A DNA stretch of 56,409 nucleotides from the IMG/VR virus record IMGVR_UViG_2617270940_000006. One strand, written 5' to 3'. The translations under genes and the position numbers were made by a program. The notes beneath the pieces are model-generated. The model worked only from the letters and a program-made list of their open reading frames with translations. It was not told the origin of the DNA and did no database searches. Shown here one piece after another: positions 5,983 to 46,173 of this stretch (position 1 is the first letter of the stretch; each line of letters starts with the position of its first letter). Source of the DNA: a virus (Duplodnaviria > Heunggongvirae > Uroviricota > Caudoviricetes).

Positions 5983-6042
5983 TCCCCTATCTGGCTTTTT
6001 TAGTATTAGAAAACAAATTGTTTAAGCACCAAAGGAAAGCAC

Positions 6043-9166: not shown

Positions 9167-9387
9167 TATCGGTTAACCAGTTTCTTATTGGTGGTGTCCA
9201 GAGTGTCAAACAGGGATGCGAATTCAGCATCCAGCGCCGCTTTTTTGTAGGCTTCGAAAGTGGCCTTGCTGACAATTACAGCTGGCTCACGGCCTCTACG
9301 GGTGATTTCAACCTCTTCTCCGGCTTCAACATTGTTGAGCACTTCGGTAAGATTGCTGCGTGCGGTACGGAAGTTAATAGATTGCAT
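9166..9387 (-). CDS. phd: Phd antitoxin
   Basis: [10 protein letters not shown]... matches recalled P1 Phd; stop overlaps the doc start. Confidence 0.95.
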
Positions 9388-9571
9388 AAACACCTCGTGT
9401 ACTCAATATGTGTACGCAATTATAGAGCTTAATTGCCCACTACTCCATCATTTTATCCAGTGCGCCTTATACCTCCACTCTGAAGGACGGGGTTTTAGGG
9501 CGCTCTGGATAAAAACACACGTACTTTCTCTCCGAAAGTACGTGAAAAGTAGCGACTAACCACCATGCTCA

Positions 9572-10582
9572 TTAGTCGTAGGATACGGCAAATATCGCCT
9601 GGCCTTGAACTTCCCCAGGCTGTAAAGCTTCCTCTTTCACGCGAACGTATTTTGCGGTAATCGGGAAGATGTACTGTTCCTGAATAGCCGCCATTTTAGG
9701 TAATCTGTTCATCAGGGTATCGCCCAGCTTTAACGGTGTCGTTGCATTACCATTGTAAATCTGGAACCCTACACCCTTAGCACCATCGGACAATGTATTT
9801 TTCAATATTGTTCCACTATCATCCCACACACCACGCTCAACTTTAAAAGTCACTGGATTAGTCGTGACGTTATAGACACTATCGCAATTTAGGACCAGAT
9901 CTACAGAACCTGATTTTGAGTTATTGGCAGATAGCATCTCACTTATCGTTGTTTCTGGTATTCTTATTTCGTAAGTCGGTTGCGAGAAACGACAGGTTGT
10001 GGGTTTGTGTTTAACAGTAATGGTTAGTTTTTGTTCGTAAGCATCGCCTTTATTTAACAACCCCAATAAATTGCACAATATCCATGAAAAAATATTTGAA
10101 CTGCATTGATTATCAGATAAAAAGTTACCCGCTGGCTTTTTTAATTCGAATGAATCCCCCTCTACCGCTTCACCATGATCACTTCTATATGTAGTTGGTG
10201 GTATATATGAGGCCGTTAACTTCAGTTGTTTATTATTAATGGTATCAGCAACAGAATAGGTTTTAGGCGACAGAAGCGAACCACTCGTTTCTACAGGAAA
10301 TCCATCAGCCTCAAGCTTTAATTTAATAAAAATAGACTTATTGCTGGAGCCATCTTTCATTTCAACAATATAGTCATCTAACGTTGTTGCAAAATACATC
10401 TTATCCCCCCTCGAGTTACATTCATAAGATCCTTGCAGGTTGGGATTAAAACTTACTATTGTTGAATCCCTTGTTAAGTCCAGTGTAATTGGTTGAGTTG
10501 CTGTCCAAGTTCCCTTAGGGGTACATTTCGCCTGCCCAAAAAATGGAATAATCAACAAAAACAAAAACCAATATTTCTTCAT
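9572..10582 (-). CDS. Fimbrial minor subunit / tip adhesin candidate
   Basis: Signal peptide (MKKYWFLFLLIIPFFGQA); distal gene of the chaperone-usher operon; start set 11 bp after the usher stop. Confidence 0.55.
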   Translation of the reverse strand: MKKYWFLFLLIIPFFGQAKCTPKGTWTATQPITLDLTRDSTIVSFNPNLQGSYECNSRGDKMYFATTLDDYIVEMKDGSSNKSIFIKLKLEADGFPVETSGSLLSPKTYSVADTINNKQLKLTASYIPPTTYRSDHGEAVEGDSFELKKPAGNFLSDNQCSSNIFSWILCNLLGLLNKGDAYEQKLTITVKHKPTTCRFSQPTYEIRIPETTISEMLSANNSKSGSVDLVLNCDSVYNVTTNPVTFKVERGVWDDSGTILKNTLSDGAKGVGFQIYNGNATTPLKLGDTLMNRLPKMAAIQEQYIFPITAKYVRVKEEALQPGEVQGQAIFAVSYD

Positions 10583-10592
10583 AAAAAATCCT

Positions 10593-13085
10593 TTAACGAC
10601 AAATATAAACTTTATTCTCTTCGATAACTTTATCAAAGGTAATAGTACAGAATTGTTCCTGCTGTTTATTAACCGAGACGCGAATCGATGCGGGAACATC
10701 ATCAGTGCGAATAAATATCCGACTTCCCTGTCCTACCAAGCCCACATTCTTACCGCTTTCATCTTCAACTTCATAACCGAACGATAATGGAGAACCATCC
10801 GGGCGCTGAGCAAGGAAATACCAGGGTTTACGTTTGTCAGTATCAAACTGCGTCATCACAACGGCCCCACGATAAGGAGCGGTGCTTTTACGGTTGCCCA
10901 GTAGTGCCACATCGCTTTGACTGTCAGAAGTATCCAGCATCAACGTGTTTTTACGATACGGCGTCAGGCTGTCATAAATAGCGTAACCTCGGCTATCCGT
11001 GCTCAGGTAACGATACCCCTGTACCGCAGCCCCATCCAGCCCCGGAGCATGGACGATGGTAAATGTATCTGAAAGTCTGGGAGCCAGTGCTATCCCGTCT
11101 GACCACGCGACTAAACCACCTTGAATATTACCACTTATCTGTTGATATTTTTTCGACTGGCTATAGCTGCCACCAATGGTAGCCACTGGCGCACGCCAAA
11201 TCAGATTTCCACCTGCTGTTGCTTCGCTGTCCTGTTGTTGATGGCTAAAGTTAGCCCCGTAGCTGAACTGATCACGGTTCCCAGCTACACCACTGAGGCT
11301 GGTAGTATTTGACTGGTAGCCGTCTTTATCAAATGTGGTCGAGTTAGAGATAAATAAATCTCGTCGTTTTTCGGTGATATTATCACGCCACGAGAAGGGG
11401 ATTGAGAAAAATAAGTTAATGCGTCTGTCTTCGCTGTTATCCTCATCGTATGTCTGGCTAACCGACAAGGTATAACTTAGACGTTCCCATGAGTTCGTAT
11501 AGCTTAGTTGGTAATTTTTCCCTGTCCCGCTACGTTCCCAGTAATCTCGCCATTGACCGCTGATCGCCAGATACCCCCAATTTTCCGGTAATGACTGGTT
11601 GATATTTAAAGAAAAGCTATTCTTGCGACCAAAATCATACTGGTAGTAGTTGGCAATGTCATAGCCTGAGTTGTCTTCTCGATTGTATCTATTTTTGTTA
11701 TTTGCCCATACATGATCGTTAAAAGTACGATAACCCCGAGAGGAATAACGCCAGGCCGCCAGAGAAAATTGTGTTCCGCTCTGAGAGAGATATTTATTCC
11801 AGGCAATCTGATAACTTTGACCGTTAAACACATCACCGTTGTCTTGCTTGCTGTATGAATGGGTAAAATCAACCGATATAGCACCAATCGGTGTATTCCA
11901 TCCTGTTCCAAGAACAAACGATGAGTAATTATCAGATAACAGCGTGCCGCCATAACCTGTCAGCAAATTGTTGAAACCATGCTTATAGCTTCCCTGGATA
12001 AAATCAGATTGATTGCTGGCTCCTTCAATATGACTACGTCCGGCTGAAAATTCATATTTAGAAACGCCAGGTTGCAACATATTTGGCACCGATGAATAAG
12101 GCACCCGATAGTACGACGTTGAACCATCAGCTTCTTTGACGATAACTTCCAAATCTGCCCCACCATTAGAAAGTTGCAAATCATCAATGGCGAATGGGCC
12201 TGGCGGTACTTCTTTCTGGTAAACCACAAAACCATTTTGTTCTATGGTGACGAGTGCGTTACTCTGGGCAACGCCGCGTACCACAGGAGTAAAATTCTGT
12301 TTAGAGTTCGGTAACATCTGCATATCGCGCCAAAGGCGCACGCCGCGAAAACGCACGGAGTCAAAAACATCAGAACCAGTATACATTTCACCTGCGCGAA
12401 ACGTGCCGAGAATTTGTGGAATTCCACGTTCCAGATATAGCGTGTTACTCTTCCATTTACCGCTGTTTTCGTCGCTTTTCGTATAATTGGCATTTGAATG
12501 CAGCTGCCAGCCCAGGAGATTTAACCCACTGTTCAGATTTAGATAGCTACTTTTATCATCTCCGCCGTTTTTATAATCACTGTAATACTGACTGGCATAA
12601 TAAGATGTATATAATGCGTTAATCCCGCGATCCCATGCTTCAGGCGGAACATAGCCATGTTCATATTCCAGAACATAGGCTTGGGGCACGCTTAATTTTA
12701 GGTTAAAATGCCCAATATCATAGTCGACGCTGCCTCCCTGGACAGCATCCCGAAGTGGTACACATTCTACGCCTTTATCGATACTAATTCCTTCAGTGAG
12801 GATCCCAATTTGCTTTAATTGCTCCATGGATAAACATGTTGCATTAGGGTCATCTTTAATATCAATATCATAGTGGCCACGCCATTGATTATTCAGATAA
12901 ACATCCATAGCGTAGATACCCGGCATCGGCTTATCACTATCAATATGGTAGTTAGAAATTTTCTCCCCATTTAAACCACCAATCATAAAATTGGTATTAA
13001 ACGTTTCACCCTTAGCCCATGTATGCGAAGTCGCTAATACTGACAGAATAGCCAGTGTAATAGAATTAAACTTTGACATAACCAA
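10593..13085 (-). CDS. Fimbrial outer-membrane usher
   Basis: 830 aa with signal peptide; size and position between chaperone and adhesin are typical of usher proteins. Confidence 0.9.
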   Translation of the reverse strand: MVMSKFNSITLAILSVLATSHTWAKGETFNTNFMIGGLNGEKISNYHIDSDKPMPGIYAMDVYLNNQWRGHYDIDIKDDPNATCLSMEQLKQIGILTEGISIDKGVECVPLRDAVQGGSVDYDIGHFNLKLSVPQAYVLEYEHGYVPPEAWDRGINALYTSYYASQYYSDYKNGGDDKSSYLNLNSGLNLLGWQLHSNANYTKSDENSGKWKSNTLYLERGIPQILGTFRAGEMYTGSDVFDSVRFRGVRLWRDMQMLPNSKQNFTPVVRGVAQSNALVTIEQNGFVVYQKEVPPGPFAIDDLQLSNGGADLEVIVKEADGSTSYYRVPYSSVPNMLQPGVSKYEFSAGRSHIEGASNQSDFIQGSYKHGFNNLLTGYGGTLLSDNYSSFVLGTGWNTPIGAISVDFTHSYSKQDNGDVFNGQSYQIAWNKYLSQSGTQFSLAAWRYSSRGYRTFNDHVWANNKNRYNREDNSGYDIANYYQYDFGRKNSFSLNINQSLPENWGYLAISGQWRDYWERSGTGKNYQLSYTNSWERLSYTLSVSQTYDEDNSEDRRINLFFSIPFSWRDNITEKRRDLFISNSTTFDKDGYQSNTTSLSGVAGNRDQFSYGANFSHQQQDSEATAGGNLIWRAPVATIGGSYSQSKKYQQISGNIQGGLVAWSDGIALAPRLSDTFTIVHAPGLDGAAVQGYRYLSTDSRGYAIYDSLTPYRKNTLMLDTSDSQSDVALLGNRKSTAPYRGAVVMTQFDTDKRKPWYFLAQRPDGSPLSFGYEVEDESGKNVGLVGQGSRIFIRTDDVPASIRVSVNKQQEQFCTITFDKVIEENKVYICR

Positions 13086-13096
13086 TCCCTGATAAT

Positions 13097-13777
13097 CTAT
13101 TTGGCAGTTTTTATTTTTTCACTCAAATAGTTTCCATGATCATCAATCAGAGTAACATTGTAATAGTTAACAACGGATGTCGTTTTGACAGTCTGATCTG
13201 ACCAGGGTGCCAGCAGTAGTGTCTCCTTATTAATTTTCGCATTCCCGGTTAATTCAGGAATGGTTATCCAGTTCGCTGAATTATTTTTTATGTTAATGCC
13301 TCTATCAACGGGTCTGATATTAATCCGGGAAAAACTCTCTTTATCGACTCTTGTTATACCCTTTGGGCGATAAATAAATTTGATACGATTTTGCATCGCG
13401 AATTTAATCAGATTCTTGCCTTCGTATTTCTCACTATTAGGTGGAATATCCAGTACATTAAGGAAGAACAGACTTTCGCGATCTTTAGGTAGAGTGTTCG
13501 CCAGTTGTTTAATTTTCAGTTGCTGTCCTTCACCCTTACTAACATGAACTACCGGTGGAGTCAGCACAAAAGGTACACTAATCTTTTCCGGAGGAAGGCT
13601 GGCATCGCCATCATCAATCCACGACTGAACAAGAGCACTACGCTCACCTTCATTCATTAACTGAACTGCAATCTCTTTTTTCTGTTCCGGATAAATAACG
13701 CGAGTGCCGTAAATATAGACACCGCCCCACGCAGATGGGACCGTTACGGTTAGTAAGAAGGCTATTAATTTTTTCAT
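13097..13777 (-). CDS. Fimbrial periplasmic chaperone (PapD-like)
   Basis: Signal peptide plus characteristic chaperone length and operon position; start placed at MKKLIAFLL. Confidence 0.85.
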   Translation of the reverse strand: MKKLIAFLLTVTVPSAWGGVYIYGTRVIYPEQKKEIAVQLMNEGERSALVQSWIDDGDASLPPEKISVPFVLTPPVVHVSKGEGQQLKIKQLANTLPKDRESLFFLNVLDIPPNSEKYEGKNLIKFAMQNRIKFIYRPKGITRVDKESFSRINIRPVDRGINIKNNSANWITIPELTGNAKINKETLLLAPWSDQTVKTTSVVNYYNVTLIDDHGNYLSEKIKTAK

Positions 13778-13832
13778 GATAACAATCCTTGCGATTGAAA
13801 ATCGGCGACCGAAGCCGCCGATAAACATCATG

Positions 13833-14381
13833 TTAATCTGTTACAACGGTCATTGTTATCGCAGAACTAACTTCGCCAGTACCCACATCATCAGCTGCTT
13901 TTGCGTATTGCGCCGTAAAATGCAACTCATATTCACCATTAGTAGCTGGTGGTAACTTAATAGGACTATTACCAGAAATCCGGTTGCTAGAATCAGTACC
14001 TTTCCCCAAAAAAACAGCGAAACCGACACCGCTAGCATCACCAGTATTGCGAGTAACATTTGAACCCGTTCCTTCAAATTGGGTGCTGGAGAAGGTAATT
14101 CTTGGTTCTTTTTCTCCGGGACATTTAACTTTTAGTGGTAAAGATGTTGTATTTGAATAAGTGGTAACGGGGGAGCCAACTTCTACATTTTCAAATTGAT
14201 CACGACCAATTTCGCTCATCGAAATTGTTGTATTCTCACTACCGCTCAGGAACTGACATGTAGTCTCTGTGACTTTACCGTTAATAGTTAACTGACCCTC
14301 TGTACTCCCTTCTGCTGCAAATGATCCTGCGCTCATAAAAAGAGATGCTAATACAGTAGCCGCAATAACTGAACGTTTCAT
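13833..14381 (-). CDS. Major fimbrial subunit
   Basis: 182 aa, signal peptide, Cys pair, first gene of the operon. Confidence 0.8.
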   Translation of the reverse strand: MKRSVIAATVLASLFMSAGSFAAEGSTEGQLTINGKVTETTCQFLSGSENTTISMSEIGRDQFENVEVGSPVTTYSNTTSLPLKVKCPGEKEPRITFSSTQFEGTGSNVTRNTGDASGVGFAVFLGKGTDSSNRISGNSPIKLPPATNGEYELHFTAQYAKAADDVGTGEVSSAITMTVVTD

Positions 14382-14511
14382 AGACTAATCCTTAACTAAT
14401 TTGCTTTAACTAAAAAAGAGATCGCAATCTCTTGCTAATAAATTACTAAAAATAAAAATGATAGAGCAATATAAAAGAATATTTTTTATTTTAATCAAAA
14501 ACATTTCCATG

Positions 14512-15537
14512 TGGATTGGCCCCTATATTTCCAGACACTTTTTATCGCTTAACCCATTACTGGTTCGCCGCCGCAGATATTCCCGTGGAGAACGATATCC
14601 CAGTGCACTGTGCGGATGCCATTCGTTGTAATGTTCGAAGGCCTCCGCAAGGTTCTTTGCCGCTGTTAACCCGTCAGGTTTTGGCATGATACTGATGTAG
14701 TCGCGCTTCATCGTTTTCACGAAGCTCTCCGCCATTCCGTTGCTTTCTGGACTACGTACCGCCGTATGTTTTGGCTCCAGTCCTATCATTCTGGCGAACT
14801 GACGCGTCTGATGAGAACGGTAGGCTGAACCGTTGTCTGTCAGCCACTCAACGGGGGATGTCGGCAGCCTGTTACCGAAGCGACGCTCTACTGCACCCAG
14901 CATGACGTCCTGCACGGTTTCACTGTCATATCCACCGGTACTTGCTGCCCAGTGAAGTGCCTCGCGCTCGCAACAGTCCAGCGCGAACGTGATCCGCAGT
15001 TTTTCACCGTTATCACAGCTGAACCCGAAGCCGTCGGAGCACCACCGCTGGTTACTTTCTCCAACGGCCACTTTCCCTCTATGCGCCCGCTTCGAGGGCG
15101 GTATTGCCGGTTTACGCTCAAGCAGCAGCGCATTCTGACGCATGATGCGGTATACGCGTTTGGCATTGATCACCGCCATGTCGTCAGTTTCTGATTGTCT
15201 GCGCAGCAGTACCCATACACGACGATAACCATAGGTGGGCAGATCGTCGATAACGGTATGGATACGAGCCAGCGCTTCAGTATCATCAGGCTTGCGCTTG
15301 CACCGACGATCCTGCCAGCCCTTCGACCGACGGGCCATGGCATGCAGTTGCGCACGTGAGACCCGGAGGCAACGACTGACAAGGCTTATTCACCATCCTC
15401 CGGCAACAAGGGCACGTGCGCTATCCACTTTTTTTGTCGGCCATATTCAACGGCTTCTTTCAGCAGCTCGTTTTCCATGGTTTTTTTGCCCAGCAGGCGC
15501 TGTAACCAACTGTCTGGAGATTCATGGGGCTAGTCTA
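14512..15537 (-). mobile_element. IS2-like element with internal deletion of the OrfA region
   Basis: Ends TGGATTGGCCCCTATATTTCC and GTCTGGAGATTCATGGGGCTAGTCTA resemble IS2 ends. About 1026 bp versus about 1.3 kb for IS2. Flanked by a 5-bp direct repeat, CCATG, at 14507-14511 and 15538-15542. Confidence 0.85.
14523..15338 (-). CDS. IS2-group transposase OrfB (InsD-like, diverged)
   Basis: 271 aa, collinear with the IS2 InsD at 1-906 but clearly diverged; upstream OrfA is largely deleted. Confidence 0.85.
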
Positions 15538-15608
15538 CCATGTTTATGGAAACATAACATTAAAATTATTTCGTAGTTTATTTTTTAGTTTAAATTGTCA
15601 AATTCATC

Positions 15609-15640
15609 GGTAATGCTACCAACTTATTGATTTAGTGTAT
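15609..15640 (+). mobile_element. IS1 terminal inverted-repeat remnant
   Basis: GGTAATGCTACCAACTTATTGATTTAGTGTAT resembles the recalled IS1 end (GGTGATGCTGCCAACTTACTGATTTAGTGTATG) and abuts the IS3-family end. Confidence 0.55.
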
Positions 15641-16058
15641 TGAATCGCCACAGGTTTAATAGACACCTCAGAGTCATTTAAGATGACTTAAAGAGAGGTG
15701 CCCATGAGCGGTAAGCGTTATCCCGAAGAGTTTAAAATTGAAGCAGTCAAACAGGTTGTTGATCGCGGTTATTCTGTTGCCAGCGTTGCAACACGTCTCG
15801 ATATCACCACCCACAGCCTTTACTCCTGGATAAAGAAGTACGGTCCGGATTCTTCCACTAATAAAGAACAGTCAGATGCTCAGCGTCTCCAGAAAGAGCT
15901 GAAGCGGGTTACCGACGAACGGGACATATTAAAAAAAGCGCGGCGTACTTCGCAAAGCTGTCCGACTGAGGTACGCCTTTATCCGTGACAACACCCATTG
16001 CTGGCCTGTCCGACTGCTTTGTCGGGTGCTGGATGTGCATCCGAGTGGTTTTTACGCC
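15641..16058 (+). mobile_element. IS3-family element, left-end fragment
   Basis: Terminal repeat TGAATCGCCACAGGTTTAATAGACACC, OrfA, an A6G slippery site near 15930 and about 30 codons of OrfB in the -1 frame, then backbone sequence. Confidence 0.75.
15698..15988 (+). CDS. IS3-family transposase OrfA
   Basis: HTH-containing OrfA (YPEEFKIEAVKQV...LKKA) ending at a frameshift window. Confidence 0.8.
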   Translation: MPMSGKRYPEEFKIEAVKQVVDRGYSVASVATRLDITTHSLYSWIKKYGPDSSTNKEQSDAQRLQKELKRVTDERDILKKARRTSQSCPTEVRLYP

Positions 16059-16156
16059 TGGCTTCTTCGTATAGCAGACTATTGCGCTCGATATAATAAG
16101 TAGATACTTACTTATTTTTCTGAAAGAATACTTTCATCTGTTAGTCAGGAGTTGCT

Positions 16157-16969
16157 ATGAAAGAAGAATTTCAGAAGTTAGTCTGCGACATCATCGACAA
16201 ATCCGGCGTAGAAATTGATACAGAAGAGCGCCAGAAGATTATCGACGAGGCGATCCAAACTGCGCTGGAGCATATCGCCACGTCCGTGAGCGCCGCACCT
16301 CTTTCGGAAGGCTCGAAATACATGCAGGTCTGGGTTCGTTTTGGAGAGTCCCCGGAGTTGCCAGGTGTTAAGCAGAAACGCGCGGCACTTGTGGCGTTCT
16401 CTCGCGAGATGAAAGACGCAACGGTCGAAGTGAGTACCGGTGCATGGTACGACGGTCGCATTGTCTACACTAATCAGACTGTCTACACCAATCAGACTGT
16501 GTGCGATGAAGGTGAACGGTTTGAGGATATTGTCGACGCAACTCTTCGCACGCTCAAAGTCAGAGCTGGTGTGGCGGATGACCCGTCCATCGCGGCGTTC
16601 CTGAGTATTGTCGAACAGTCTGAAGTTACCGAGCGCGTAACAGATCTGACAACTCCACCTGGTTTGCTGGAATTGGTGGTCAGTGGCGATATCAAAAAAG
16701 CCGTTGAGCGCATTCGTGAGGTGGAATACGGCATTATCTGCGATATGTGCCGCAGCGACTTAGACCTGGTGCGCATCATTGTCGACGCGGGTCAGGCATG
16801 TGACGGAGTACTCGCCAGTTTTGCAGGGCAAGTGGCTCGTCTGGCCAACGAATTACCCATGATTAAACAAGAAGCCAAATCCTACGCCGTCCACCATGCC
16901 AACGATTTACTGGACCCATACCGGTTCGAAGCTGCTCAGGACAAAATGACTGGCTGGGCGACCTGGTAA
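16157..16969 (+). CDS. Hypothetical protein
   Basis: 270-aa ORF preceded by a class A motif and followed by a GC hairpin plus T-run at 16988-17008; contains an 18-bp tandem duplication. Confidence 0.5.
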   Translation: MKEEFQKLVCDIIDKSGVEIDTEERQKIIDEAIQTALEHIATSVSAAPLSEGSKYMQVWVRFGESPELPGVKQKRAALVAFSREMKDATVEVSTGAWYDGRIVYTNQTVYTNQTVCDEGERFEDIVDATLRTLKVRAGVADDPSIAAFLSIVEQSEVTERVTDLTTPPGLLELVVSGDIKKAVERIREVEYGIICDMCRSDLDLVRIIVDAGQACDGVLASFAGQVARLANELPMIKQEAKSYAVHHANDLLDPYRFEAAQDKMTGWATW

Positions 16970-17049
16970 GCCTCGATAAAACATTTAGCCCCTCGTGGGG
17001 CTTCTTTAAACTGCGATTAATAAGTAAGTACAAGATTACGGTTAGAAGC

Positions 17050-17526
17050 ATGTCCACAAGACCAGATTTGTCGAAAATCCCGTCTATCTCCGGAAACAAC
17101 GGTTATTCGCTGCGCTGCCCGGAAGTGAAGCTCAACGGCCATGAGGCTCATTGCAGCTATACAGTCTGCCAACACACGATCCTCGCCTATAAAGAAAAAC
17201 GTCTCCCGGCTACATCGTTCCAGTCCTGTGCTGCGGCTATTGCTGCTGGTAAATGTCAGGCACTGAAAATGATGGTCGAAGAGATCCGCAAAGGCGAACA
17301 GCTCTACTTCATCGATATGTCTTCACTTATCAAAGAAGTGGAAGAGCAAAACGACCATGCCAGAACGCCCCCCCGGAAGCGAAACTCCGCGACAATTGAC
17401 AGTCTTATTCATCGCACGAAGAAAACAGAACCTGCTAAATCCGAAACCAAGCCCACCGATTCACTGGCGCCGATCACTGACGTGTACGCGGCACTCATTG
17501 AAGAAGCAACCAAAGAAAACACATGA
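17050..17526 (+). CDS. Hypothetical Cys/His-containing protein
   Basis: 158-aa ORF with a CPEV...HEAHCSYTVCQH cluster; preceded by a class A motif. Confidence 0.45.
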   Translation: MSTRPDLSKIPSISGNNGYSLRCPEVKLNGHEAHCSYTVCQHTILAYKEKRLPATSFQSCAAAIAAGKCQALKMMVEEIRKGEQLYFIDMSSLIKEVEEQNDHARTPPRKRNSATIDSLIHRTKKTEPAKSETKPTDSLAPITDVYAALIEEATKENT

Positions 17527-17560
17527 AAACTCCCGAGCGACCGATGGAGGTTAAACACTA

Positions 17561-18883
17561 ATGGAAAAACTGATCGCCCTAAAGCACAAGCTGGATGCTA
17601 TTAAAACGATGGGAACCAACGCCAAGAAAGAGGCGCTGGCCAATCTGGATGAATTTGAACAGAGCATGGTCTCGCTAATGCTCAATCCATTCATTCGATT
17701 CGGTGTGAAGAAGTACAAAGTGGCCGAGCCACTCGATACTTCCGTACCCAGCGACCAGAAGGTAGTAGATCTGCTGGAGAAGCTGGCAGCGCGCGAACTG
17801 ACCGGGAACATCGCTATTGCTGCTGTCGAATCACTCGTTGCCTCGATGTGCGCTGACGGGCAGGACGTGTTTCGTCGCTTCCTGCTGAAAGATCCGAAAG
17901 CCGGTGTCGGCATCAGCCTGTGCAACAAGGTGTTCAAAAACCCAATTCCGAAGTTTGAGGTACAGCTGGCGTCTCCGTACAAGGAGAAAGGCGACAAATA
18001 CCCATTTAAACCAAATCCAAAGGCCAAGTGGCCAATGATCGGCAGTCTCAAACTCGATGGTCTCCGGGTTATCTGCGAAGTCATCGTGGACGAGGGTGAG
18101 GTCAATTTCCTGACGCGCACCGGCAATCCGATTACGTCACTCGATCACCTTAAACCAGCCATGCTGGAGCGGGGCAGAGTCTCCGGCTTCAATCACATCT
18201 TCTTCGATGGAGAGGGCACTGCAGGTACATTCAACCAGTCAGTGTCGGCGCTTCGTAAGAAGAACGTGAAAGCCATTGGTGCCGTTTACCACATTTTCGA
18301 TTTCTTCTTACCGGAGTGGCGTGCTCAAGCAAAAAGCAAAGAGTACCTGAAGACCGGTATGAAGCTGAAAGAGCGCCTGGCTATGCTGGTGGCGTTGTTC
18401 CGCAACACTTGCGTGGAAGATTATGCGCAAGATATCCACCTTCATCCGTTCTACATCATCCATAGCCACGAAGATTTCATCGAACGTTTCATGAAGCGAC
18501 TGGACGAGAATGAAGAGGGAGAGATGGGCAAAGATCCGGATTCAGTTTACGAGTTCAAACGTACCCGCAGCTGGTGGAAGCTGAAAGACGAGGATTCAGA
18601 AGACGGTGAAATCATCGACTTCGAGCCTGGCGATCCGGATTCTGGATTTGCGCATACGCTAGGCAAGATAGTGATTCGTCTGGAGAACGGCGTCATCGTT
18701 CGTGCCAGCGGTATCAAGCATAAATACCTGGATGAAATCTGGAACAATCAGGAGAAGTATCGTGGGCGCATCGTTGAGGTTCACTGCCATGAGAAAACGC
18801 CAGACGGTAGCTTACGCCACCCACGTCTGAAGTGGCCGAAATGTCTGCGAGATACCGAAGACCGTATTGGAGATAAAGACTGA
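17561..18883 (+). CDS. ATP-dependent DNA ligase
   Basis: Adenylation motif with the KxDG lysine (IGSLKLDGLRV); 440 aa. Confidence 0.85.
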   Translation: MEKLIALKHKLDAIKTMGTNAKKEALANLDEFEQSMVSLMLNPFIRFGVKKYKVAEPLDTSVPSDQKVVDLLEKLAARELTGNIAIAAVESLVASMCADGQDVFRRFLLKDPKAGVGISLCNKVFKNPIPKFEVQLASPYKEKGDKYPFKPNPKAKWPMIGSLKLDGLRVICEVIVDEGEVNFLTRTGNPITSLDHLKPAMLERGRVSGFNHIFFDGEGTAGTFNQSVSALRKKNVKAIGAVYHIFDFFLPEWRAQAKSKEYLKTGMKLKERLAMLVALFRNTCVEDYAQDIHLHPFYIIHSHEDFIERFMKRLDENEEGEMGKDPDSVYEFKRTRSWWKLKDEDSEDGEIIDFEPGDPDSGFAHTLGKIVIRLENGVIVRASGIKHKYLDEIWNNQEKYRGRIVEVHCHEKTPDGSLRHPRLKWPKCLRDTEDRIGDKD

Positions 18884-19042
18884 TGCTTGGCTGGATGTTT
18901 GTATTTTTAGTCGTCGGCATTGTTATCGGAAGTCTGGTTATGTCCAGCTGTATCCACGATTACGTAAAAGCCGGTGTCATGCAAAGGCGAGGTCGTATTT
19001 ATCGCATAGTAGATATCACGGACACACTGAAGGAGATTAAGG

Positions 19043-19255
19043 ATGATCATGTTAAGTAAACGAGAGAAGGAAACCCTGCGTGAAATCAGCAAGTGGAAGG
19101 AATTCTACGCCAACTGGAAGCCGAAGACCAGAGCCAAACTGGAGCGCATGAATCTTGTCGCTAACGTTTCGCCAAAGGGATGTGTGGAGAACTATCAACT
19201 CACTGAAAAAGGTTATTTGTTGTTGCAGCAATTGACTGAGGCGGGGGCATACTGA
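19043..19255 (+). CDS. Small hypothetical protein
   Basis: 70-aa ORF within a run of short coupled ORFs (18884-19709). Confidence 0.35.
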   Translation: MIMLSKREKETLREISKWKEFYANWKPKTRAKLERMNLVANVSPKGCVENYQLTEKGYLLLQQLTEAGAY

Positions 19256-19403
19256 TGATTCCATACATCATTTTATCATTCACTGGTGGCGTGGGCCTCG
19301 GCCTCGCAATCTGCCGCGCCCTGGTCCAGCAGGAACTGAAAACCAAAACACTTCGTGTTGGTAAGCGTGTGTATCGGGTTGTTCACGAGACGGGAGTGCG
19401 AAA

Positions 19404-19709
19404 ATGAGCAATTTGACTTCCTTCGACTGGTGGCTGGCAACCTACCTTGTTGCGGCCGGCTTCGGATTTGCCTTTTACGTTGGTCAGTTAATCGTAAAGC
19501 TACTGCTGATAAGATTCGCCAGCCATAAACGCATAGACGACGGTCTGTGGCGTCTGGGGTCCCTGTTAGAGACGCATTACGGCGAACTCAAGGAAAACGA
19601 AACTATCACTATTCAAGCGAAGCGTTTTACCGCCATCATCACGAGAACTCCGGAACAAAAGGGGAGCCTGATCAAAAAGATAGCAACTAAACGCATTACA
19701 GATAGATAA
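19404..19709 (+). CDS. Small membrane protein
   Basis: 101-aa ORF with an N-terminal TM helix; overlaps the preceding small ORF by ATGA. Confidence 0.4.
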   Translation: MSNLTSFDWWLATYLVAAGFGFAFYVGQLIVKLLLIRFASHKRIDDGLWRLGSLLETHYGELKENETITIQAKRFTAIITRTPEQKGSLIKKIATKRITDR

Positions 19710-34454: not shown

Positions 34455-36797
34455 ATGGCAAAAGGCAAATCCGCACTGGCACTGGCGCTGAAAAAGAAAA
34501 TCGGCAGCAATGACGAGATTCAGAAGGTCTCCCACTGGATTGACTCCGGTTTCCCTCCACTGAACAAAGCCATTTCCGGACGTTACGACGGTGGTTTTCC
34601 GTGTGGGCGTATCGTTGAAGTCTTCGGGCCACCAAGCGCGGGGAAATGTGTTACCGCAGACACCATGCTGCTGACGGAGCGTGGAATGGTAACAGTGAAA
34701 GAACTGTTTGAGATTGAGGGGCACAAAGCAACATGCACTACTCGCGATGTAGAGCATAACGTTGGACTCATCAATGAAAATGGCGTGATAGAGAAGACCT
34801 CACACCTGACATGGAACAACCGTCGCAAATTCAAGCGCATTAAGCTGGCATCAGGGGGTTACATCGAGGCTACGTTCCGTCACCCAATTCGTGTGGTTGA
34901 CGACTTAGGCAATATCGTCTGGCGGCATGCTGAAAAAATCAGTGTAGGCGACACGATTCCTTCAATGGTTGGCACACATCAATTCGGCGATCAGCACTTG
35001 GATGCCAATATCGCAAAACTGATGGGCTATTTAATTGCTGACGGATACGTGGCCTCTGAAAATTCTGTGCATTTTTCTAACACAGATCCATTCATCAAGG
35101 ATGAGTACTACCGCCTCATTTCGCTGGTATCAGACAAGATGCCAGTTACGAGAAAACATAACGGCTCGGAAGACCATGTGCTGTTTAGCAAAGAGGTGCG
35201 TTCGCTGCTTTTTAAAGAATATGGTCTGGAGTATGAGAAAGCTGCTGGCAAGCAGGTTCCGTTGAGTGTGCGTCGCGCCAATAGCGAGGCTCAAATTGCA
35301 TTCCTTCGCGGCTACTTTGAGCTGGAATGCCACGTCAATGATGGTCGCTGCATTGAGGTTGTGAGCGCGAGTGGGCTGCTGCTACAGCAAATTCGCCTCA
35401 TGCTCCTGAATCTGGGGATTGCGTCAACTATCTCTGAAAAACACGTCGCAGGTTATAAAAACATATATTACCGGCTGTCATTCAGTGGCTCTAACTACGA
35501 CCTTTTCCTGTCAACGATTGGGTTCGAGTCTCCGGCTCGTTTAGCAGTGGCAACCAAACGGGACATTAGTTTTGACCGCACTTATTTAGGCTACGTTCCG
35601 CACATCAGCGGCTTAGTGAAATCACTCTACGAGTCACTCACCAAGACCTCTCGTAAAGACTACGTTCTGGTAGATCACGTTATTGGCCGCGGCGATCGTG
35701 TCGGAATAGACAAACTGCGAGAAATCTATGTCTCCTTCATTGGCAGAAAGAATCGTTTTAACGAGCATCTGTTTGCACAACTGGCAGCGGTAATTGACTC
35801 TAACTTGTTCTACGACGAAGTCGTGGCTATTGAGGAAGGTGAAGCACCAACGTTCGACGTAGCGATGCCGGAAACACACTCTTTCTGGTCTAACGGGATT
35901 ATCAGCCACAACACATTCCTCGCGACGGCTGCGATGGTGTCAGCACAAAAACAGGATGGTCTGGCCGTATTCCTTGACCACGAAAACAGTTTCGACGTTG
36001 GTCTGGCGGTAGCGAACGGACTGAACGCCGACGAAGACGACGGTCAGTGGGTCTACAAACAGCCGGATACCTTCGAAGACTCCGTAGAGCTGATCGGCAC
36101 AATCCTCAAGCTGGTGCGCGACGAAGAGCTTATTCCGGAAACAGCCCCTATCTGCATCGTAGCCGACTCTCTGGCGTCGATGGTTCCAAACTCGAAGGCT
36201 GAGAAGTTCGACAAGATGGCAGAAGGCACTGCGAAGGACAAAGATCAGCTGAACATGAACGACAACACGGCGCTGGCGCGCGCGACAAGTGCGAACTTCC
36301 CTACTCTGGCGCTTTGGGCGCGTAAGTACAACGCGTGCATCATCTTCTTGAACCAGGTGCGTACCAAAATTGGTGTGATGTTTGGCGATCCGACTACGTC
36401 TCCGGGTGGCGACTCTCCGAAGTTCTACGCGTCGGTGCGCATCCGTCTGGGTGCATCCGTCATGAAGGATGGCAAAGAGAAGATCGGACAGGACGTTGGC
36501 GCCGAGTGCATTAAAAACAAAGTCGCGCCTCCGTTTGGCAAATGCTCATGGAAATTCTACTTCGACCCGACTCGCGGGCTGGACGTCGTCGAGTCTCTGG
36601 TTGAATACATGCTGGAGGAAGGATACCTGCCCAAGAGCGCCAGCGGGCGTGTGGAAATTGGCGAGAAGAAATACACCAAATCGCAGATCGTCGAGATGTA
36701 CCGCGAGAAGCCACTCCCGGAAATCATCGCAGCACTCCAGGCGATAGACGAACGGCGAGCGAAAGAGTCGTCACCAGCAGAGACAGAAGAAGCGTAA
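34455..36797 (+). CDS. RecA/UvsX-like recombinase interrupted by an intein
   Basis: The Walker A motif is split: GPPSAGK then Cys at codon 65, and it resumes as TFLATAAMV after ...SHN at codon 486. Removing codons 65-486 leaves a 358-aa RecA-size protein with a contiguous GPPSAGKT. Confidence 0.85.
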   Translation: MAKGKSALALALKKKIGSNDEIQKVSHWIDSGFPPLNKAISGRYDGGFPCGRIVEVFGPPSAGKCVTADTMLLTERGMVTVKELFEIEGHKATCTTRDVEHNVGLINENGVIEKTSHLTWNNRRKFKRIKLASGGYIEATFRHPIRVVDDLGNIVWRHAEKISVGDTIPSMVGTHQFGDQHLDANIAKLMGYLIADGYVASENSVHFSNTDPFIKDEYYRLISLVSDKMPVTRKHNGSEDHVLFSKEVRSLLFKEYGLEYEKAAGKQVPLSVRRANSEAQIAFLRGYFELECHVNDGRCIEVVSASGLLLQQIRLMLLNLGIASTISEKHVAGYKNIYYRLSFSGSNYDLFLSTIGFESPARLAVATKRDISFDRTYLGYVPHISGLVKSLYESLTKTSRKDYVLVDHVIGRGDRVGIDKLREIYVSFIGRKNRFNEHLFAQLAAVIDSNLFYDEVVAIEEGEAPTFDVAMPETHSFWSNGIISHNTFLATAAMVSAQKQDGLAVFLDHENSFDVGLAVANGLNADEDDGQWVYKQPDTFEDSVELIGTILKLVRDEELIPETAPICIVADSLASMVPNSKAEKFDKMAEGTAKDKDQLNMNDNTALARATSANFPTLALWARKYNACIIFLNQVRTKIGVMFGDPTTSPGGDSPKFYASVRIRLGASVMKDGKEKIGQDVGAECIKNKVAPPFGKCSWKFYFDPTRGLDVVESLVEYMLEEGYLPKSASGRVEIGEKKYTKSQIVEMYREKPLPEIIAALQAIDERRAKESSPAETEEA
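34647..35912 (+). other. Intein (422 aa) with LAGLIDADG homing-endonuclease domain
   Basis: Begins with Cys, ends with His-Asn, and is followed by Thr. Two LAGLIDADG-like blocks (LMGYLIADGYV, LRGYFELECHV). Confidence 0.8.
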
Positions 36798-37283: not shown

Positions 37284-37357
37284 GTCATCTTAAATGACTC
37301 TGAGGTGTCTGTTAAACCTGTGGCGATTCAGTCTATTAAACCTGTAGCGATTCACTT
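37262..37357 (-). mobile_element. IS3-family left-end remnant (inverted), with an extra 25-bp terminal-repeat copy
   Basis: The reverse complement of 37262-37331 matches 15641-15699; 37332-37357 repeats the terminal 25 bp. Confidence 0.7.
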
Positions 37358-37515
37358 TATGGTGTCATAAACTTAAATCTAGCGCCGGGTAGAACAAGTT
37401 AATCGAACGATGTAGCGGCCATTTAGGCGTTACAGAAAGAACAGAATTTTAAATTTATAGTGAAGCCGTTGCAGCAACTTTGTGGGGTGCAACCAACACT
37501 GAACAGGAAAAGAAA

Positions 37516-39945
37516 ATGGATCATAGTGTACATAACAAGCTCATCTCATTTATTTGGAACATTGCCGACGACTGTTTACGTGATGTGTACGTTCGCGGTA
37601 AGTACCGCGATGTGATTTTACCTATGGTGGTATTACGACGTTTAGATACGTTACTTGAACCCACCAAAGAAGCCGTGCTTGAAGAGGTCAAGTTCCAAAA
37701 AGAAGAGATGCAAGCCACGGAGCTTGATGATGAACCATTGAAGGCGGCTAGTGGTTATGTTTTTTACAATACATCTAAATGGACCCTGAAATCCCTGTTC
37801 AACACCGCAACGAATAACCAACAGATATTACTCGCCAACTTTGAAGAGTACCTGCTTGGCTTTAGCGATAATGTTAAAGAAATCATTGAATGCTTTAACC
37901 TCAAGTTGCAAATTCGTCACATGGCCTCAAAGCAAGTCCTTCTTGATGTCGTCGAAAAGTTTGTTTCCCCTTACATCAACTTAACTCATGAAACGGTCGA
38001 AGACCCAGATGGCAACAAGATGCCAGCCCTTACTAACCTGGGTATGGGGTACGTGTTCGAAGAGTTGATCCGTAAGTTCAACGAGGAGAATAACGAAGAA
38101 GCCGGTGAGCACTTTACACCTAGGGAAGTGATTGAGCTGATGACACACTTGGTTTTTGACCCAGTGAAAGAGCAGCTACCATTGACCATGACCGTTTACG
38201 ACCCTGCGTGTGGTAGCGGTGGTATGCTCACTGAATCTCAAAACTTCATTGAAGAGAAATACCCGAACGACAGCCGAGATATTTACCTTTACGGCAAAGA
38301 GATCAATGACGAGACCTACGCGATTTGTAAATCGGACATGATGATCAAAGGTAACAACCCTGAGAACATCAAGGTAGGCTCAACCTTGTCTACCGACGAG
38401 TTTGCGGCTTCTCGCTTTGACTTTATGTTGTCTAACCCGCCATACGGTAAGAGTTGGGCGTCTGAACAGAAGTACATTAAAGACGGCAGTGATGTGATTG
38501 ACCCGCGTTTTAAGGTTAGCCTGAAAGACTATTGGGGAAATCTCGAAGTGGTGGATGCCACGCCACGTTCGAGTGATGGCCAGCTGCTTTTCTTAATGGA
38601 GATGGTCAACAAGATGAAAGATCCGAGCGTAAGTCCATTAGGCAGCCGGATTGCCTCTGTTCATAACGGCTCATCGCTCTTTACCGGTGATGCGGGCAGT
38701 GGCGAAAGTAATATTCGTCGCTTCATCATTGAAAACGACATGCTAGATGCCATCGTTCAGTTACCTAATAACCTGTTCTATAACACTGGCATTACCACTT
38801 ACATTTGGGTGTTGAACAACAATAAACCTGAGGCGCGTAAAGGTAAGGTGCAATTAATTGATGCCAGCTTGCTCTACCGTAAGTTGCGCAAGAACTTAGG
38901 TAACAAAAACTGCGAATTTGCGCCTGAGCACATCACGGAAATTACCGATACTTACCTCGCGTGTAAGGATGTTGAAAGAGCACTGGATGCAAACAATGAT
39001 CCTGTTGGCATCGCCAGTAAGGTATTCAGCAATGACGATTTTGGCTACTACAAAGTCACTATAGAGCGCCCAGATCGCCGCAAAGCCAAGTTTACTCAAG
39101 ACGCAATAGCCCCACTGCGTTTTGATAAGCAACTTAGTGAAGTGATGGAGTACGTGTACGCAGAGCACGGCGAACGTGTTTACGAAAAAACTGGCTACGG
39201 GTCAGCTCAGAAAAAGAGCTTCTTAAAATCCATCGAGAAAGACATTCTTTCTTGGTGTGAAGATAACGACATCAGTCTCAATGCTAAGGCTAAGGCCAAA
39301 CTGCTTGATGTGAAACACTGGCTGGCGCTAAAAGCATTGCTTGAAACTGCACAAACGCTGATGGCTGACATCGGTAGCATTGAATTTGATGACTTCAATA
39401 GCTTTAAAACCCAAGTTGATAAATCGCTAAAAGCCCATGCTATTAAGCTTTCAGCACCTGAGAAAAATGCCATTCTTCACGCGGTGAGCTGGTATGACGA
39501 AACCGCCAAGAAAGTGGTTAAAAAGGTAGTTAAATTAACGGGTGATAAATTAAACGACCTGCTGGAGCGCTATGAGTGTGAAGTCGCTGACTTGCCAGAT
39601 TTTGGTTATTACCCCGTTCCTTCAGCAGAAGGCGGTAAAAAAGGCGAGTATATCACTTACGAGACCAATTCAGACCTGCGAGATACAGAATCTGTTCCAT
39701 TAAAGCAAAGCATTTACCAGTACTTCCTAGATGAAGTGAAGCCTCATGTCGATGAAGCATGGATAAACCTAGATACGGTAAAAATTGGCTATGAAATCAG
39801 CTTCAATAAGTATTTCTACCGTCATAAACCGCTGCGTAGTTTAGAAGAGGTCGCAACCGACATCATCAACCTAGAACAAAAAGCCGAAGGTCTCATTGCG
39901 CAGATATTGGGTGTTAAAGTGGCGGAAGCTCAGGGAGAAGCGTAA
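37516..39945 (+). CDS. hsdM: Type I restriction-modification methyltransferase subunit (HsdM), unusually long
   Basis: Motif I DPACGSGGML and motif IV NPPYG; about 810 aa from the ATG at 37516. Confidence 0.9.
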   Translation: MDHSVHNKLISFIWNIADDCLRDVYVRGKYRDVILPMVVLRRLDTLLEPTKEAVLEEVKFQKEEMQATELDDEPLKAASGYVFYNTSKWTLKSLFNTATNNQQILLANFEEYLLGFSDNVKEIIECFNLKLQIRHMASKQVLLDVVEKFVSPYINLTHETVEDPDGNKMPALTNLGMGYVFEELIRKFNEENNEEAGEHFTPREVIELMTHLVFDPVKEQLPLTMTVYDPACGSGGMLTESQNFIEEKYPNDSRDIYLYGKEINDETYAICKSDMMIKGNNPENIKVGSTLSTDEFAASRFDFMLSNPPYGKSWASEQKYIKDGSDVIDPRFKVSLKDYWGNLEVVDATPRSSDGQLLFLMEMVNKMKDPSVSPLGSRIASVHNGSSLFTGDAGSGESNIRRFIIENDMLDAIVQLPNNLFYNTGITTYIWVLNNNKPEARKGKVQLIDASLLYRKLRKNLGNKNCEFAPEHITEITDTYLACKDVERALDANNDPVGIASKVFSNDDFGYYKVTIERPDRRKAKFTQDAIAPLRFDKQLSEVMEYVYAEHGERVYEKTGYGSAQKKSFLKSIEKDILSWCEDNDISLNAKAKAKLLDVKHWLALKALLETAQTLMADIGSIEFDDFNSFKTQVDKSLKAHAIKLSAPEKNAILHAVSWYDETAKKVVKKVVKLTGDKLNDLLERYECEVADLPDFGYYPVPSAEGGKKGEYITYETNSDLRDTESVPLKQSIYQYFLDEVKPHVDEAWINLDTVKIGYEISFNKYFYRHKPLRSLEEVATDIINLEQKAEGLIAQILGVKVAEAQGEA

Positions 39946-41267
39946 TGGAGCGTTTAGCATTGATGCCGAAATATGAGGATTATGTAGATTCTGGAGTTGA
40001 ATGGTTAGGGGATTTACCGAGCCATTGGGACGCAGTAAAAATGAAGTTTCTTTTCAAAGATACGTCGATGAAAAACAAGCCTAACGAAACTTTATTATCT
40101 GTTACACAAAGTCAAGGTGTTGTTCCCAGAGAGTGGGTAGAAAACAGAATGGTTATGCCATCTGGCAATCTAGAAAGCTTCAAGTTCATTGCAAAAGGTG
40201 ACTTTGCTATAAGCCTTCGTTCCTTTGAAGGTGGTTTGGAGTATTGTCATCATGATGGAATCATAAGCCCTGCTTATACGGTGTTAAAAACTAAGAAAGA
40301 TTATCTACTTGCAGGATATTACAAATATTTGTTTAAAAGTCAGACTTTTATTTCAGAGTTACAAACATCGATTGTAGGGATTCGTGAAGGAAAAAACATC
40401 AGTTATGAGGAGTTGCAATATTCACTTCTTCCTATTCCGGCTGAAGAAGAACAAACCCGTATCGCCAACTTCCTCGACAAGAAAACCGCTCTAATCGACG
40501 AAGCGATTTCGATCAAAGAGCAGCAAATTAGCCTGCTGAAAGAGCGTAAGCAGATCATCATCCAACAGGCGGTGACCCAAGGGCTTGATCCCAATGTGCC
40601 AATGAAAGACTCCGGTGTGGATTGGATTGGAGATATTCCAGAGCATTGGGAAGTTGTGCCTCTAAAAAGGTTGGCGGTCTTGAGCCCTTCTGTGAAAGTT
40701 TCAAATAGAAAGTCCAAAGAATTAGTTACTTTCTTAGCGATGGAAAAGGTTTCAACAGATGGATTTATTGATCAAGATACATTAATGCCTATATGTGATG
40801 TGAGCCAAGGTTTTACGGTTTTTAACCGGGGGGATGTGATTGTTGCAAAAATTACACCTTGCTTTGAAAATGGGAAATCTGCTTGGCTTAACAATCTTCA
40901 AACTGAGTTTGGATACGGCTCAACCGAGTTTCACGTTTTAAGATGTGGTCAGAGAATTATAGGAAGTTTTCTCTACTTAATCGTTAGTTCGCCCCTTTTT
41001 CTTAATGCCGGTGAGGCTATGATGACTGGTTCAGCTGGTCAGAAGCGCGTGCCTAGTTCATTTATCCAAAACTTTCCTACCGCAATTCCCGGAGTTGCAG
41101 AGCAAGAAAAAATAGTATCAAAGGTAAAAGAGCTGTTTTCACAGATTGATGTTGTTGTGGCTTCTACGGTAAATCAAATCGAAAAGCTCAAAGAATACAA
41201 AACCACCCTGATCAACAGCGCCGTGACAGGAAAAATAAAAATCACCCCGGAAATGGTTGAGCAATAG
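39945..41267 (+). CDS. hsdS: Type I restriction-modification specificity subunit (HsdS)
   Basis: 440 aa with two repeated target-recognition-like halves and conserved central/C-terminal helices; start overlaps the hsdM stop. Confidence 0.8.
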   Translation: MERLALMPKYEDYVDSGVEWLGDLPSHWDAVKMKFLFKDTSMKNKPNETLLSVTQSQGVVPREWVENRMVMPSGNLESFKFIAKGDFAISLRSFEGGLEYCHHDGIISPAYTVLKTKKDYLLAGYYKYLFKSQTFISELQTSIVGIREGKNISYEELQYSLLPIPAEEEQTRIANFLDKKTALIDEAISIKEQQISLLKERKQIIIQQAVTQGLDPNVPMKDSGVDWIGDIPEHWEVVPLKRLAVLSPSVKVSNRKSKELVTFLAMEKVSTDGFIDQDTLMPICDVSQGFTVFNRGDVIVAKITPCFENGKSAWLNNLQTEFGYGSTEFHVLRCGQRIIGSFLYLIVSSPLFLNAGEAMMTGSAGQKRVPSSFIQNFPTAIPGVAEQEKIVSKVKELFSQIDVVVASTVNQIEKLKEYKTTLINSAVTGKIKITPEMVEQ

Positions 41268-41276
41268 GACGCGAAT

Positions 41277-42440
41277 ATGTTCACGGTAAATCATCAGGCC
41301 AATAGGATTAGTCCGGTTAAGACTAAGAGATTCAGTGAGTTGGGCTTTACTGAGCGCAAAAATCTTCAGGAATGGTTGGCACACGAGCCTTCCGCACTGG
41401 GTGAAGAGCTGCTGATTATTCAAAAAGAGTTCGATGGCTTTGATGACACCCGTGAACGCTTAGATTTACTGGCACTGGATAAAGATGGCAACTTGGTCAT
41501 TATTGAAAACAAGCTGGACGACAGTGGCCGCGATGTGGTGTGGCAGGCGCTTAAATATGCCTCTTACTGTGCCAGTTTAACCAAAGCGCAAATCGTTGAA
41601 ATTTACCAGCAGTACTTAGACCGCTATGAGCATGTAACAGGAGAGGTTGACTTGTTTAATACCCCTGCAAGTGCCTCTGCTAGAATATGTGAGTTTTTGG
41701 ATGCGCCCGATCTCGATGAGTTAAAGCTCAACCTGGGTAACAGCCAGCGCATTATGTTAGTTGCGGCAAACTTTCGCAAAGAAGTGACCTGCACCGCGCT
41801 GTGGTTATTGGGTCAAGGCATTAGCATTGCCTGCTTCAAAATCACGCCTTATTCACTGGGTGAACAGCTACTGATTAATATTGACCAGATCATTCCAACG
41901 CCAGAAGCGAAAGAGTTGATGATCGGCATTAATGCCAAGGAAGCGGAAGAAAAAACCACCGAAGTGGTACTAAAAAACCGCCATACCGTGCGTCGCAAGT
42001 ACTGGGAGCGTGCCTTAGAGGCGTTTCAGAAAAGCGCTTGCCAACTCTATAACAACATTAGCCCAAGCAAAGATCATTGGTTATCAGCAGGCTCAGGGCT
42101 AAGTGGATGTCCGTATAACCTGATATTTCTGCAAAAAGAGCTTCGAGTAGAGCTTTGGATCAGCCGTGGGGTTACCGAAGAGAATAAATACCTTTTTGAT
42201 TTGTTGAGTCAGTCCAAACAAGACATTGAGCATACTTTTGGTGCAGAACTTGAGTGGATGAGGCTGGATGAGAAGAAATCTTGCCGTATCCAGTTTTCGA
42301 CCAAAGCTGACGGGTTTAACAAAGAGACTTGGCCCCAAGCGGTTGCGTGGCACTTAGAGCAGATGACAAAGTTAGAAAAAGCCTTGAAAGGACCGCTGCA
42401 AAAAGCGGCTGAAGCAATGAAACAGAAGAATTTTGATTAA
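41277..42440 (+). CDS. PD-(D/E)xK-like protein embedded between hsdS and hsdR
   Basis: 387 aa; N-terminal D...ENK arrangement (DLLALDKDGNLVIIENK) suggests a restriction-endonuclease-like fold; function unknown. Confidence 0.5.
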   Translation: MFTVNHQANRISPVKTKRFSELGFTERKNLQEWLAHEPSALGEELLIIQKEFDGFDDTRERLDLLALDKDGNLVIIENKLDDSGRDVVWQALKYASYCASLTKAQIVEIYQQYLDRYEHVTGEVDLFNTPASASARICEFLDAPDLDELKLNLGNSQRIMLVAANFRKEVTCTALWLLGQGISIACFKITPYSLGEQLLINIDQIIPTPEAKELMIGINAKEAEEKTTEVVLKNRHTVRRKYWERALEAFQKSACQLYNNISPSKDHWLSAGSGLSGCPYNLIFLQKELRVELWISRGVTEENKYLFDLLSQSKQDIEHTFGAELEWMRLDEKKSCRIQFSTKADGFNKETWPQAVAWHLEQMTKLEKALKGPLQKAAEAMKQKNFD

Positions 42441-42454
42441 GGGAATTTACAATT

Positions 42455-46173
<3,719 letters not shown>

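Follow-up and report, generated by a model that had tools for sequence, protein, structure and literature searches.

The hsdM-hsdS-X-hsdR operon on a stretch of viral DNA of 56,409 nucleotides (IMG/VR record IMGVR_UViG_2617270940_000006; the whole stretch is referred to here as the window) contains an additional gene, X, between hsdS and hsdR. With a probability of roughly 65%, we consider its product to be a DNA endonuclease of the NucS-nuclease plus DUF4268 family that depends on DNA modification (type IV-like) and stands alone, functioning independently of the Hsd proteins. Its most likely role would be to cut chemically modified phage DNA that lies beyond the reach of type I restriction. 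The gene, its fold, the conservation of its active site, its family, the operon layout, its association with hsd genes and its mobility could all be documented and are described first.

Gene X and its operon

X is an intact open reading frame of 387 aa with an ATG start (41277..42440, +), located between hsdS and hsdR as the initial annotation had described, and the short intergenic gaps that it mentioned are indeed present: 9 nt separate the hsdS stop from the start of X, and 14 nt the stop of X from the start of hsdR. The first gene of the operon, hsdM (37516..39945, +), encodes a type I methyltransferase subunit of 809 aa (Pfam N6_Mtase, 5.7e-60, and HsdM_N, 6.7e-23; PADLOC MTase_I, E 2.2e-268), and its stop is overlapped by the start of hsdS (39945..41267, +), which encodes the specificity subunit of 440 aa (Pfam Methylase_S; PADLOC Specificity_I, 1e-109). 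The operon ends with hsdR (42455..45472, +), encoding the restriction/translocase subunit of 1005 aa (Pfam HSDR_N, SWI2_SNF2, ResIII and T1R_D3-like; NCBIfam hsdR, E 2.2e-62). The longest open reading frame for hsdM begins at TTG 37480; the RefSeq and ICE copies use ATG 37516. A consensus scan revealed no promoter-like or terminator-like sites at the operon junctions and, therefore, the operon is most simply read as one transcription unit; co-transcription of X with hsdM, hsdS and hsdR is also suggested by the 9- and 14-nt gaps.

The RefSeq entry for X is WP_032187689.1, a “DUF4268 domain-containing protein.” An exhaustive search of 1.84 billion cluster representatives with HMMER identified homologues in 5466 clusters (50% identity) at E<=1e-3 and in 461 at E<=1e-30, which indicates that X is a real gene. 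The best cluster matches are mostly 345-405 aa long and collinear with X.

Nuclease domain and active site

The N-terminal part of X (aa 1-206; 41277..41894, +) was earlier noted to carry a D...E-x-K arrangement. This is not a chance pattern, since D63, (D68), E77 and K79 are present and conserved. They lie in a catalytic motif block (41463..41558, +; RLDLLALDKDGNLVIIENKLDDSGRDVVWQALKY) that also comprises Q90 and Y94. When X is aligned with 75 diverse relatives (30-59% identity), E26, D63, K79, Q90 and Y94 are invariant, E77 occurs in 75 of the 76 sequences and D68 in at least 90%; in the genomic homologues discussed below D63, E77 and K79 are retained in 79 out of 79. Pfam and NCBIfam gave only sub-threshold PDDEXK_4 and NucS signals for the N-terminus. 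A confident AlphaFold2 model built on the 76-sequence alignment (mean pLDDT 93.4, pTM 0.72) does contain a nuclease fold, and the best Foldseek matches in the PDB are NucS of P. abyssi (2vld) and the EndoMS-DNA complex (5gke), both with a probability of 1.0. The core of the modeled domain consists of a helix (26-41), three strands (46-52, 62-67, 73-78) and a further helix (87-99), followed, after a helical insert, by a strand (158-163), a helix (168-179) and a hairpin (184-206). The family profile aligns residues 62-95 of X with residues 159-192 of P. abyssi NucS, so that D63/E77/K79/Q90/Y94 of X correspond to D160/E174/K176/Q187/Y191 of NucS in this profile-to-PDB alignment; a search of the PDB sequences with X as a single sequence returned nothing, and NucS was reached with the family profile only. 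With a restriction-endonuclease-like fold and D…(D/E)-x-K on its core strands, the N-terminal half of X is, according to the model, a PD-(D/E)xK nuclease domain of the NucS type.

The resemblance to NucS raises the question of whether X could be a housekeeping repair nuclease of the NucS/EndoMS type, or else a decayed passenger devoid of function, both of which would be in line with NucS being the top structural match and with the weak match to the NCBIfam NucS model (NF003270; E 1.7e-5). However, that match reaches 24 bits, far below the cut-off of 216, and covers only positions 117-201 of the 250 in the profile, i.e., its C-terminal half. As X also lacks the N-terminal domain of NucS, we regard it as having a NucS-type nuclease module and not as a NucS orthologue. 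Moreover, X is located on mobile elements and within defence islands, its reading frame has remained intact, with 97-98% conservation in many genera, and all catalytic residues are retained, which makes a repair or passenger role very improbable.

The DUF4268 domain and family membership

The remainder of the protein was initially thought to match nothing recognizable. This has to be revised: residues 238-372 (41988..42392, +) represent the Pfam domain DUF4268 (PF14088; E 2.5e-39), with a score of 134.9 bits against a gathering cut-off of 27. The domain consists of a beta-sheet and a long helix at its C-terminal end; W243, N303, W327 and W352 are conserved. DUF4268 is often appended to the C-terminus of GmrSD type IV enzymes, where it is predicted to bind DNA (PMC4619093, PMC5714182), and in X we predict it to be the module for recognition of DNA or its modification. 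Its fold resembles YbjN/type III-chaperone folds and is unlike the SRA, EVE/PUA and winged helix folds of established modified-base readers and, consequently, its role as a sensor is a conjecture. Three relatives of 536-739 aa (P0174, P0205 and P0237) possess 3-5 tandem DUF4268 domains, an architecture of which we found no mention in the literature examined; such tandem copies fit a binding module better than a catalytic one.

X as a whole matches PDC-S11, a candidate defence family catalogued in PADLOC (PDLC04913, E 5.3e-181), with residues 1-383 aligned to positions 1-373 of the 375 in the profile, and seven other PDC-S11 models in PADLOC match it as well. One protein of this kind has been characterized, i.e., MdgA (modification defence gene A), a single-gene nuclease from a 2025 functional-metagenomics study (Cell Host Microbe; PMC12366544; preprint 10.1101/2025.02.28.640651). 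MdgA works alone and degrades the glucosyl-hydroxymethylcytosine DNA of T4; the purified enzyme is far more active on T4 DNA than on GT7 DNA, it distinguishes T4 from T4-GT7 in vivo as well as in vitro, and its E77A mutant has lost nuclease activity as well as defence (PMC12366544).

The same domains could also belong to a nuclease effector that responds to a trigger other than base modification, such as a structural feature of the DNA, an intermediate of replication or a protein of the phage, and that might involve self-damage akin to abortive infection. NucS itself recognizes mismatches and branched DNA, and the likeness of the DUF4268 fold to protein-binding folds (chaperone/YbjN) instead of known base readers points in the same direction. 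MdgA is the sole family member assayed (PMC12366544) and, with family clusters extending down to about 30% identity, specificity may vary by member. Nevertheless, we consider another trigger unlikely because the one assayed member does discriminate T4 from T4-GT7, because DUF4268 has repeatedly been fused to GmrSD type IV enzymes (PMC4619093, PMC5714182), and because X is devoid of the N-terminal domain with which NucS binds mismatches.

Genomic context of X and its relatives

The context of X was surveyed in 80 loci, one per GTDB species, containing relatives 53-97% identical to X; 79 of these have an intact homologue. The genomic relatives number at least 520, of which these 80 loci contain the closest (>=53% identity); the loci were found with a 21-sequence alignment. 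Neighboring genes were scored by phmmer and by iterated HMMs seeded with HsdM, HsdS and HsdR of the window. The arrangement of the window, M-S-X-R with both gaps <200 bp, was encountered in 16 of the 79 loci. Other genes are present between X and hsdR in 12 loci, and between hsdS and X, with hsdR further on, in 9; M-S-X without a detected hsdR occurs in 5 (three of them near a contig end) and M-S-(other genes)-X in 2. The homologue is thus located downstream of hsdM-hsdS in 44 loci (56%). In 7 loci it is otherwise adjacent to hsd genes or these occur elsewhere in the locus, and in 28 (35%) hsd genes are absent within ±8 kb. With some hsd gene nearby in 65% of the loci, the association of X with hsd is far above what is expected for a random gene, yet a third of the homologues is independent of it.

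The hsd-embedded and the stand-alone homologues both retain all catalytic residues and the conserved tryptophans of DUF4268, and their contexts are phylogenetically interspersed, with the nearest neighbor differing in context for 21 out of 72. For example, the stand-alone homologue of locus L022 is 91% identical to the hsd-embedded one of L016, and those of L004 and L005, which share 92% identity with X, lie beside traI in ICEs with no hsd gene. Furthermore, the type I systems that host X fall into two lineages, one 76-98% identical to HsdM and HsdR of the window and the other, with a shorter HsdM, only 23-30% identical in Hsd, whereas X itself remains 53-64% identical. The 28 hsd-free loci, the two Hsd lineages and the interspersed contexts are not what an obligate Hsd subunit would display.

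This bears directly on whether X is wired to the type I enzyme, e.g., as an accessory subunit, as a PrrC-like guard that the Hsd complex keeps latent until phage anti-restriction proteins disable this complex, or as a nuclease stimulated by its operon partners. The position directly downstream of hsdMS in 56% of the relatives, often with <=15 nt to both neighbors, would agree with such wiring, as would the correlation of the identity of X with that of HsdM and HsdR (Spearman 0.76 and 0.64, respectively) and the 10-100-fold better protection that TgvAB provides within its full type I cluster (PMC11411939). However, the stand-alone occurrence of 35% of the relatives, among which copies with 91-92% identity, the wide divergence of the Hsd partners between the two lineages compared with that of X, the activity of MdgA on its own (PMC12366544) and the lack in X of a PrrC-like ATPase domain render functional dependence on type I quite unlikely. 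The more specific variant in which X is a DNA-nuclease guard, restrained or potentiated by the Hsd complex and unleashed when type I restriction is blocked by a phage, with DUF4268 sensing a protein or DNA state instead of a modified base, we hold to be more doubtful still.

The slot between hsdS and hsdR is known to receive defence cargo, as reported for TgvAB (PMC11411939) and DarTG2 (PMC12255303) and also documented for RloF and PrrC, and embedding in type I operons has been generalized as “guilt by embedding” (10.1101/2024.01.29.577857). In the relatives X shares this slot with GmrSD-like pairs and with AbiD, Fic, PIN, RhuM, NERD, SIR2-like and TOTE components, and stand-alone copies have Zorya, PifA, Dpd, MADS, Qat and Mza genes as neighbors. 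Given the interspersed contexts and two unrelated type I lineages, X is best regarded as a type IV-like module that is autonomous and occupies a known slot for defence cargo. Its distribution suggests that it prefers this slot without needing it. The initial annotation had proposed that X may be an accessory defence component adding a second activity to the type I system; this proposal is supported in part.

Two of these settings deserve separate mention. In L015 (9161-12504), L016 (9273-13224) and L034 (9155-12519) a two-gene GmrSD-like pair resembling TgvAB, composed of GmrSD_N+DUF7834 and GmrSD_N/GmrSD_C proteins (PADLOC HEC-06/Orf5/SspE-like), is located between the X homologue and hsdR, and two different putative modification-dependent modules would then share one type I operon. 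In the Pseudoalteromonas ICE of L004 (1622-7926) the X homologue is preceded by a 1293-aa open reading frame that is weakly DdmD-like (E 9.5e-10) and by an 823-aa open reading frame with no Pfam or PADLOC match, which may together form an uncharacterized defence pair.

Mobility of the cassette

The operon is part of a cassette of 8.2 kb (37355..45565, +), as delimited by blastn against three ICE loci (L082-L084), that has 94-96% nucleotide identity to the hotspot-5 regions of SXT/R391-type ICEs. This homology is broken only in two target-recognition segments of hsdS (~40010-40445 and ~40667-41174) that bear no relation to their ICE counterparts, implying a different recognition sequence for the type I enzyme of the plasmid. 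The window is 100% identical to the E. coli plasmid pYUXYEH3934-1 (NZ_CP110979.1), and the cassette is present in 41 plasmid records. The backbone genes (dnaE, thyA, DHFR, RepA, RecA-like) are those of an SSU5-type phage-plasmid, and since phage SSU5 matches the flanks only, the cassette represents inserted cargo.

Proteins that share 97-98% identity with X are encoded in, among others, Vibrio, Providencia, Proteus, Morganella, Alteromonas and Marinomonas. One such variant, indexed in 1454 blocks of the collection, resides in hotspot 5 of SXT/R391-type ICEs, flanked by rumAB and traI, in the order rumAB...BrxR-hsdM-hsdS-X-hsdR...CBASS-traI. In the ICE loci L082-L087 (at about 5200-19600) a BrxR-type WYL regulator lies upstream of the operon, and a CBASS pair, i.e., a SAVED-HNH effector and a DncV-like cyclase, lies downstream, before traI. 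The copy in the window has neither this regulator nor the CBASS pair, and its regulation may, therefore, differ. Identity with the type I system in hotspot 5 of ICEVchInd6 (10.1101/2020.12.16.423150) was considered and could not be confirmed.

The homology with the ICEs ends at 45565, inside a 5'-truncated IS3-family transposase (45487..46173, +; rve core only) that begins 15 nt past the hsdR stop and that may be a mark of the arrival of the cassette. Elsewhere in the backbone, the gene for the RecA-like recombinase (34455..36797, +) is interrupted by an intein with a LAGLIDADG homing endonuclease (Pfam RecA, Intein_splicing, LAGLIDADG_3) and is named “LAGLIDADG family homing endonuclease” in RefSeq. 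The E. coli host has Dam/Dcm methylation, and the phage-plasmid backbone encodes a phage Dam-like methylase.

Proposed function and significance

Type IV-like enzymes embedded in type I operons are a known theme, and our preferred reading, an autonomous modification-dependent nuclease, would add X to it. X would be produced from the hsd transcript and would act without HsdM, HsdS and HsdR. Its DUF4268 domain would bind hypermodified DNA, for instance that containing the glucosyl-hydroxymethylcytosine of T-even phages, and its NucS-type PD-(D/E)xK domain would cleave this DNA by means of D63/E77/K79, with Q90 and Y94. This substrate is proposed by analogy with MdgA and with the DUF4268-GmrSD fusions. 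The type I enzyme would thus deal with unmodified DNA and X with phages that hypermodify their bases to evade type I restriction; if X is indeed independent and modification-dependent, the operon covers two classes of invaders.

For the “DUF4268 domain-containing proteins” on thousands of contigs, including those of SXT/R391 ICEs of Vibrio, Proteus, Providencia and Alteromonas and of SSU5-like phage-plasmids of E. coli, our analysis provides a specific prediction, i.e., a NucS-type modification-dependent restriction nuclease. It also presents the hsdS-hsdR junction as a cargo slot with an exchangeable content of X, GmrSD-like pairs, Abi genes and toxins. In the context of phage therapy and of phage-host prediction, resistance to unmodified as well as T-even-like hypermodified phages would be expected of strains with this cassette.

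Comparison with known systems

MdgA is like X in combining an N-terminal NucS-type nuclease and DUF4268 in one polypeptide, in having its catalytic E77 in a near-identical motif (VIVENKLDD in MdgA, VIIENKLDD in X) and in belonging to a family that is widespread across phyla. The MdgA motif follows from the mutagenic E77A primer, which translates to VIVANKLDD (supplement, 10.1101/2025.02.28.640651), and every position of the wild-type peptide agrees with the family consensus of the relatives of X. The presumed homology of X and MdgA is read from the architecture, the 9-residue motif and the identical numbering. Metagenome contigs yielded 0 exact matches to the wild-type form of the primer and 0 matches in a degenerate scan for MILNQSI…(198 nt)…VIVENKLDD, and no protein starting with MILNQ was present among the cluster representatives or the locus proteins. 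MdgA differs in that it originates from a human-gut metagenomic insert and was assayed as an isolated gene, whereas X is part of a type I operon in a phage-plasmid/ICE cassette.

With NucS/EndoMS (2vld, 5gke) X shares the fold of the nuclease domain and the D-x13-E-x-K…Q-x3-Y active site. It differs in lacking the N-terminal mismatch/ssDNA-binding dimerization domain and in its C-terminal partner domain and genomic context.

TgvAB (Vibrio cholerae VPI-2 type I operon), BrxU (BREX) and RloF (Campylobacter hsd loci) are GmrSD-family type IV enzymes that, like X, occupy the slot next to hsdS/hsdR and, as proposed for X, place modification-dependent genes within a methylation-based system, providing complementary cover against modified and unmodified phages. 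These enzymes, however, consist of DUF262 (ParB-like NTPase) and DUF1524 (HNH) domains, whereas X is a single polypeptide with a PD-(D/E)xK NucS-type nuclease and no NTPase domain; Pfam detected neither DUF262 (GmrS) nor DUF1524 (GmrD, HNH) in X, and both are present in neighboring genes of some relatives. Two single-gene modification-dependent nucleases, END (PLD nuclease with an inactive EndoIII; PMC12191111) and CMoRE (GIY-YIG; PMC12923530), were considered as well and are analogous but composed of different domains.

PrrC and DarTG2 also bring a second, unrelated defence activity to the position between hsdS and hsdR. PrrC is an anticodon nuclease that the type I enzyme keeps latent and that is almost confined to hsd loci, and DarTG2 is an ADP-ribosylating toxin-antitoxin pair; X, in contrast, is a predicted DNA nuclease that often occurs without hsd, and searches of Pfam, NCBIfam and PADLOC revealed no PrrC-type ABC ATPase and anticodon nuclease domains in it.

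Finally, X resembles the PDC-S11/DUF4268 proteins in its full-length HMM match and in a DUF4268 score above the Pfam gathering threshold. It thus belongs to a family already catalogued in Pfam, PADLOC and RefSeq and is not a new type of system. PDC-S11 is, however, a computational candidate for a single-gene system without an assigned mechanism, to which our analysis adds fold, active site and context statistics; what is new is that the cassette gene is placed in the class of NucS-nuclease plus DUF4268 proteins, with support from its structure and active site and from the contexts in which it occurs.
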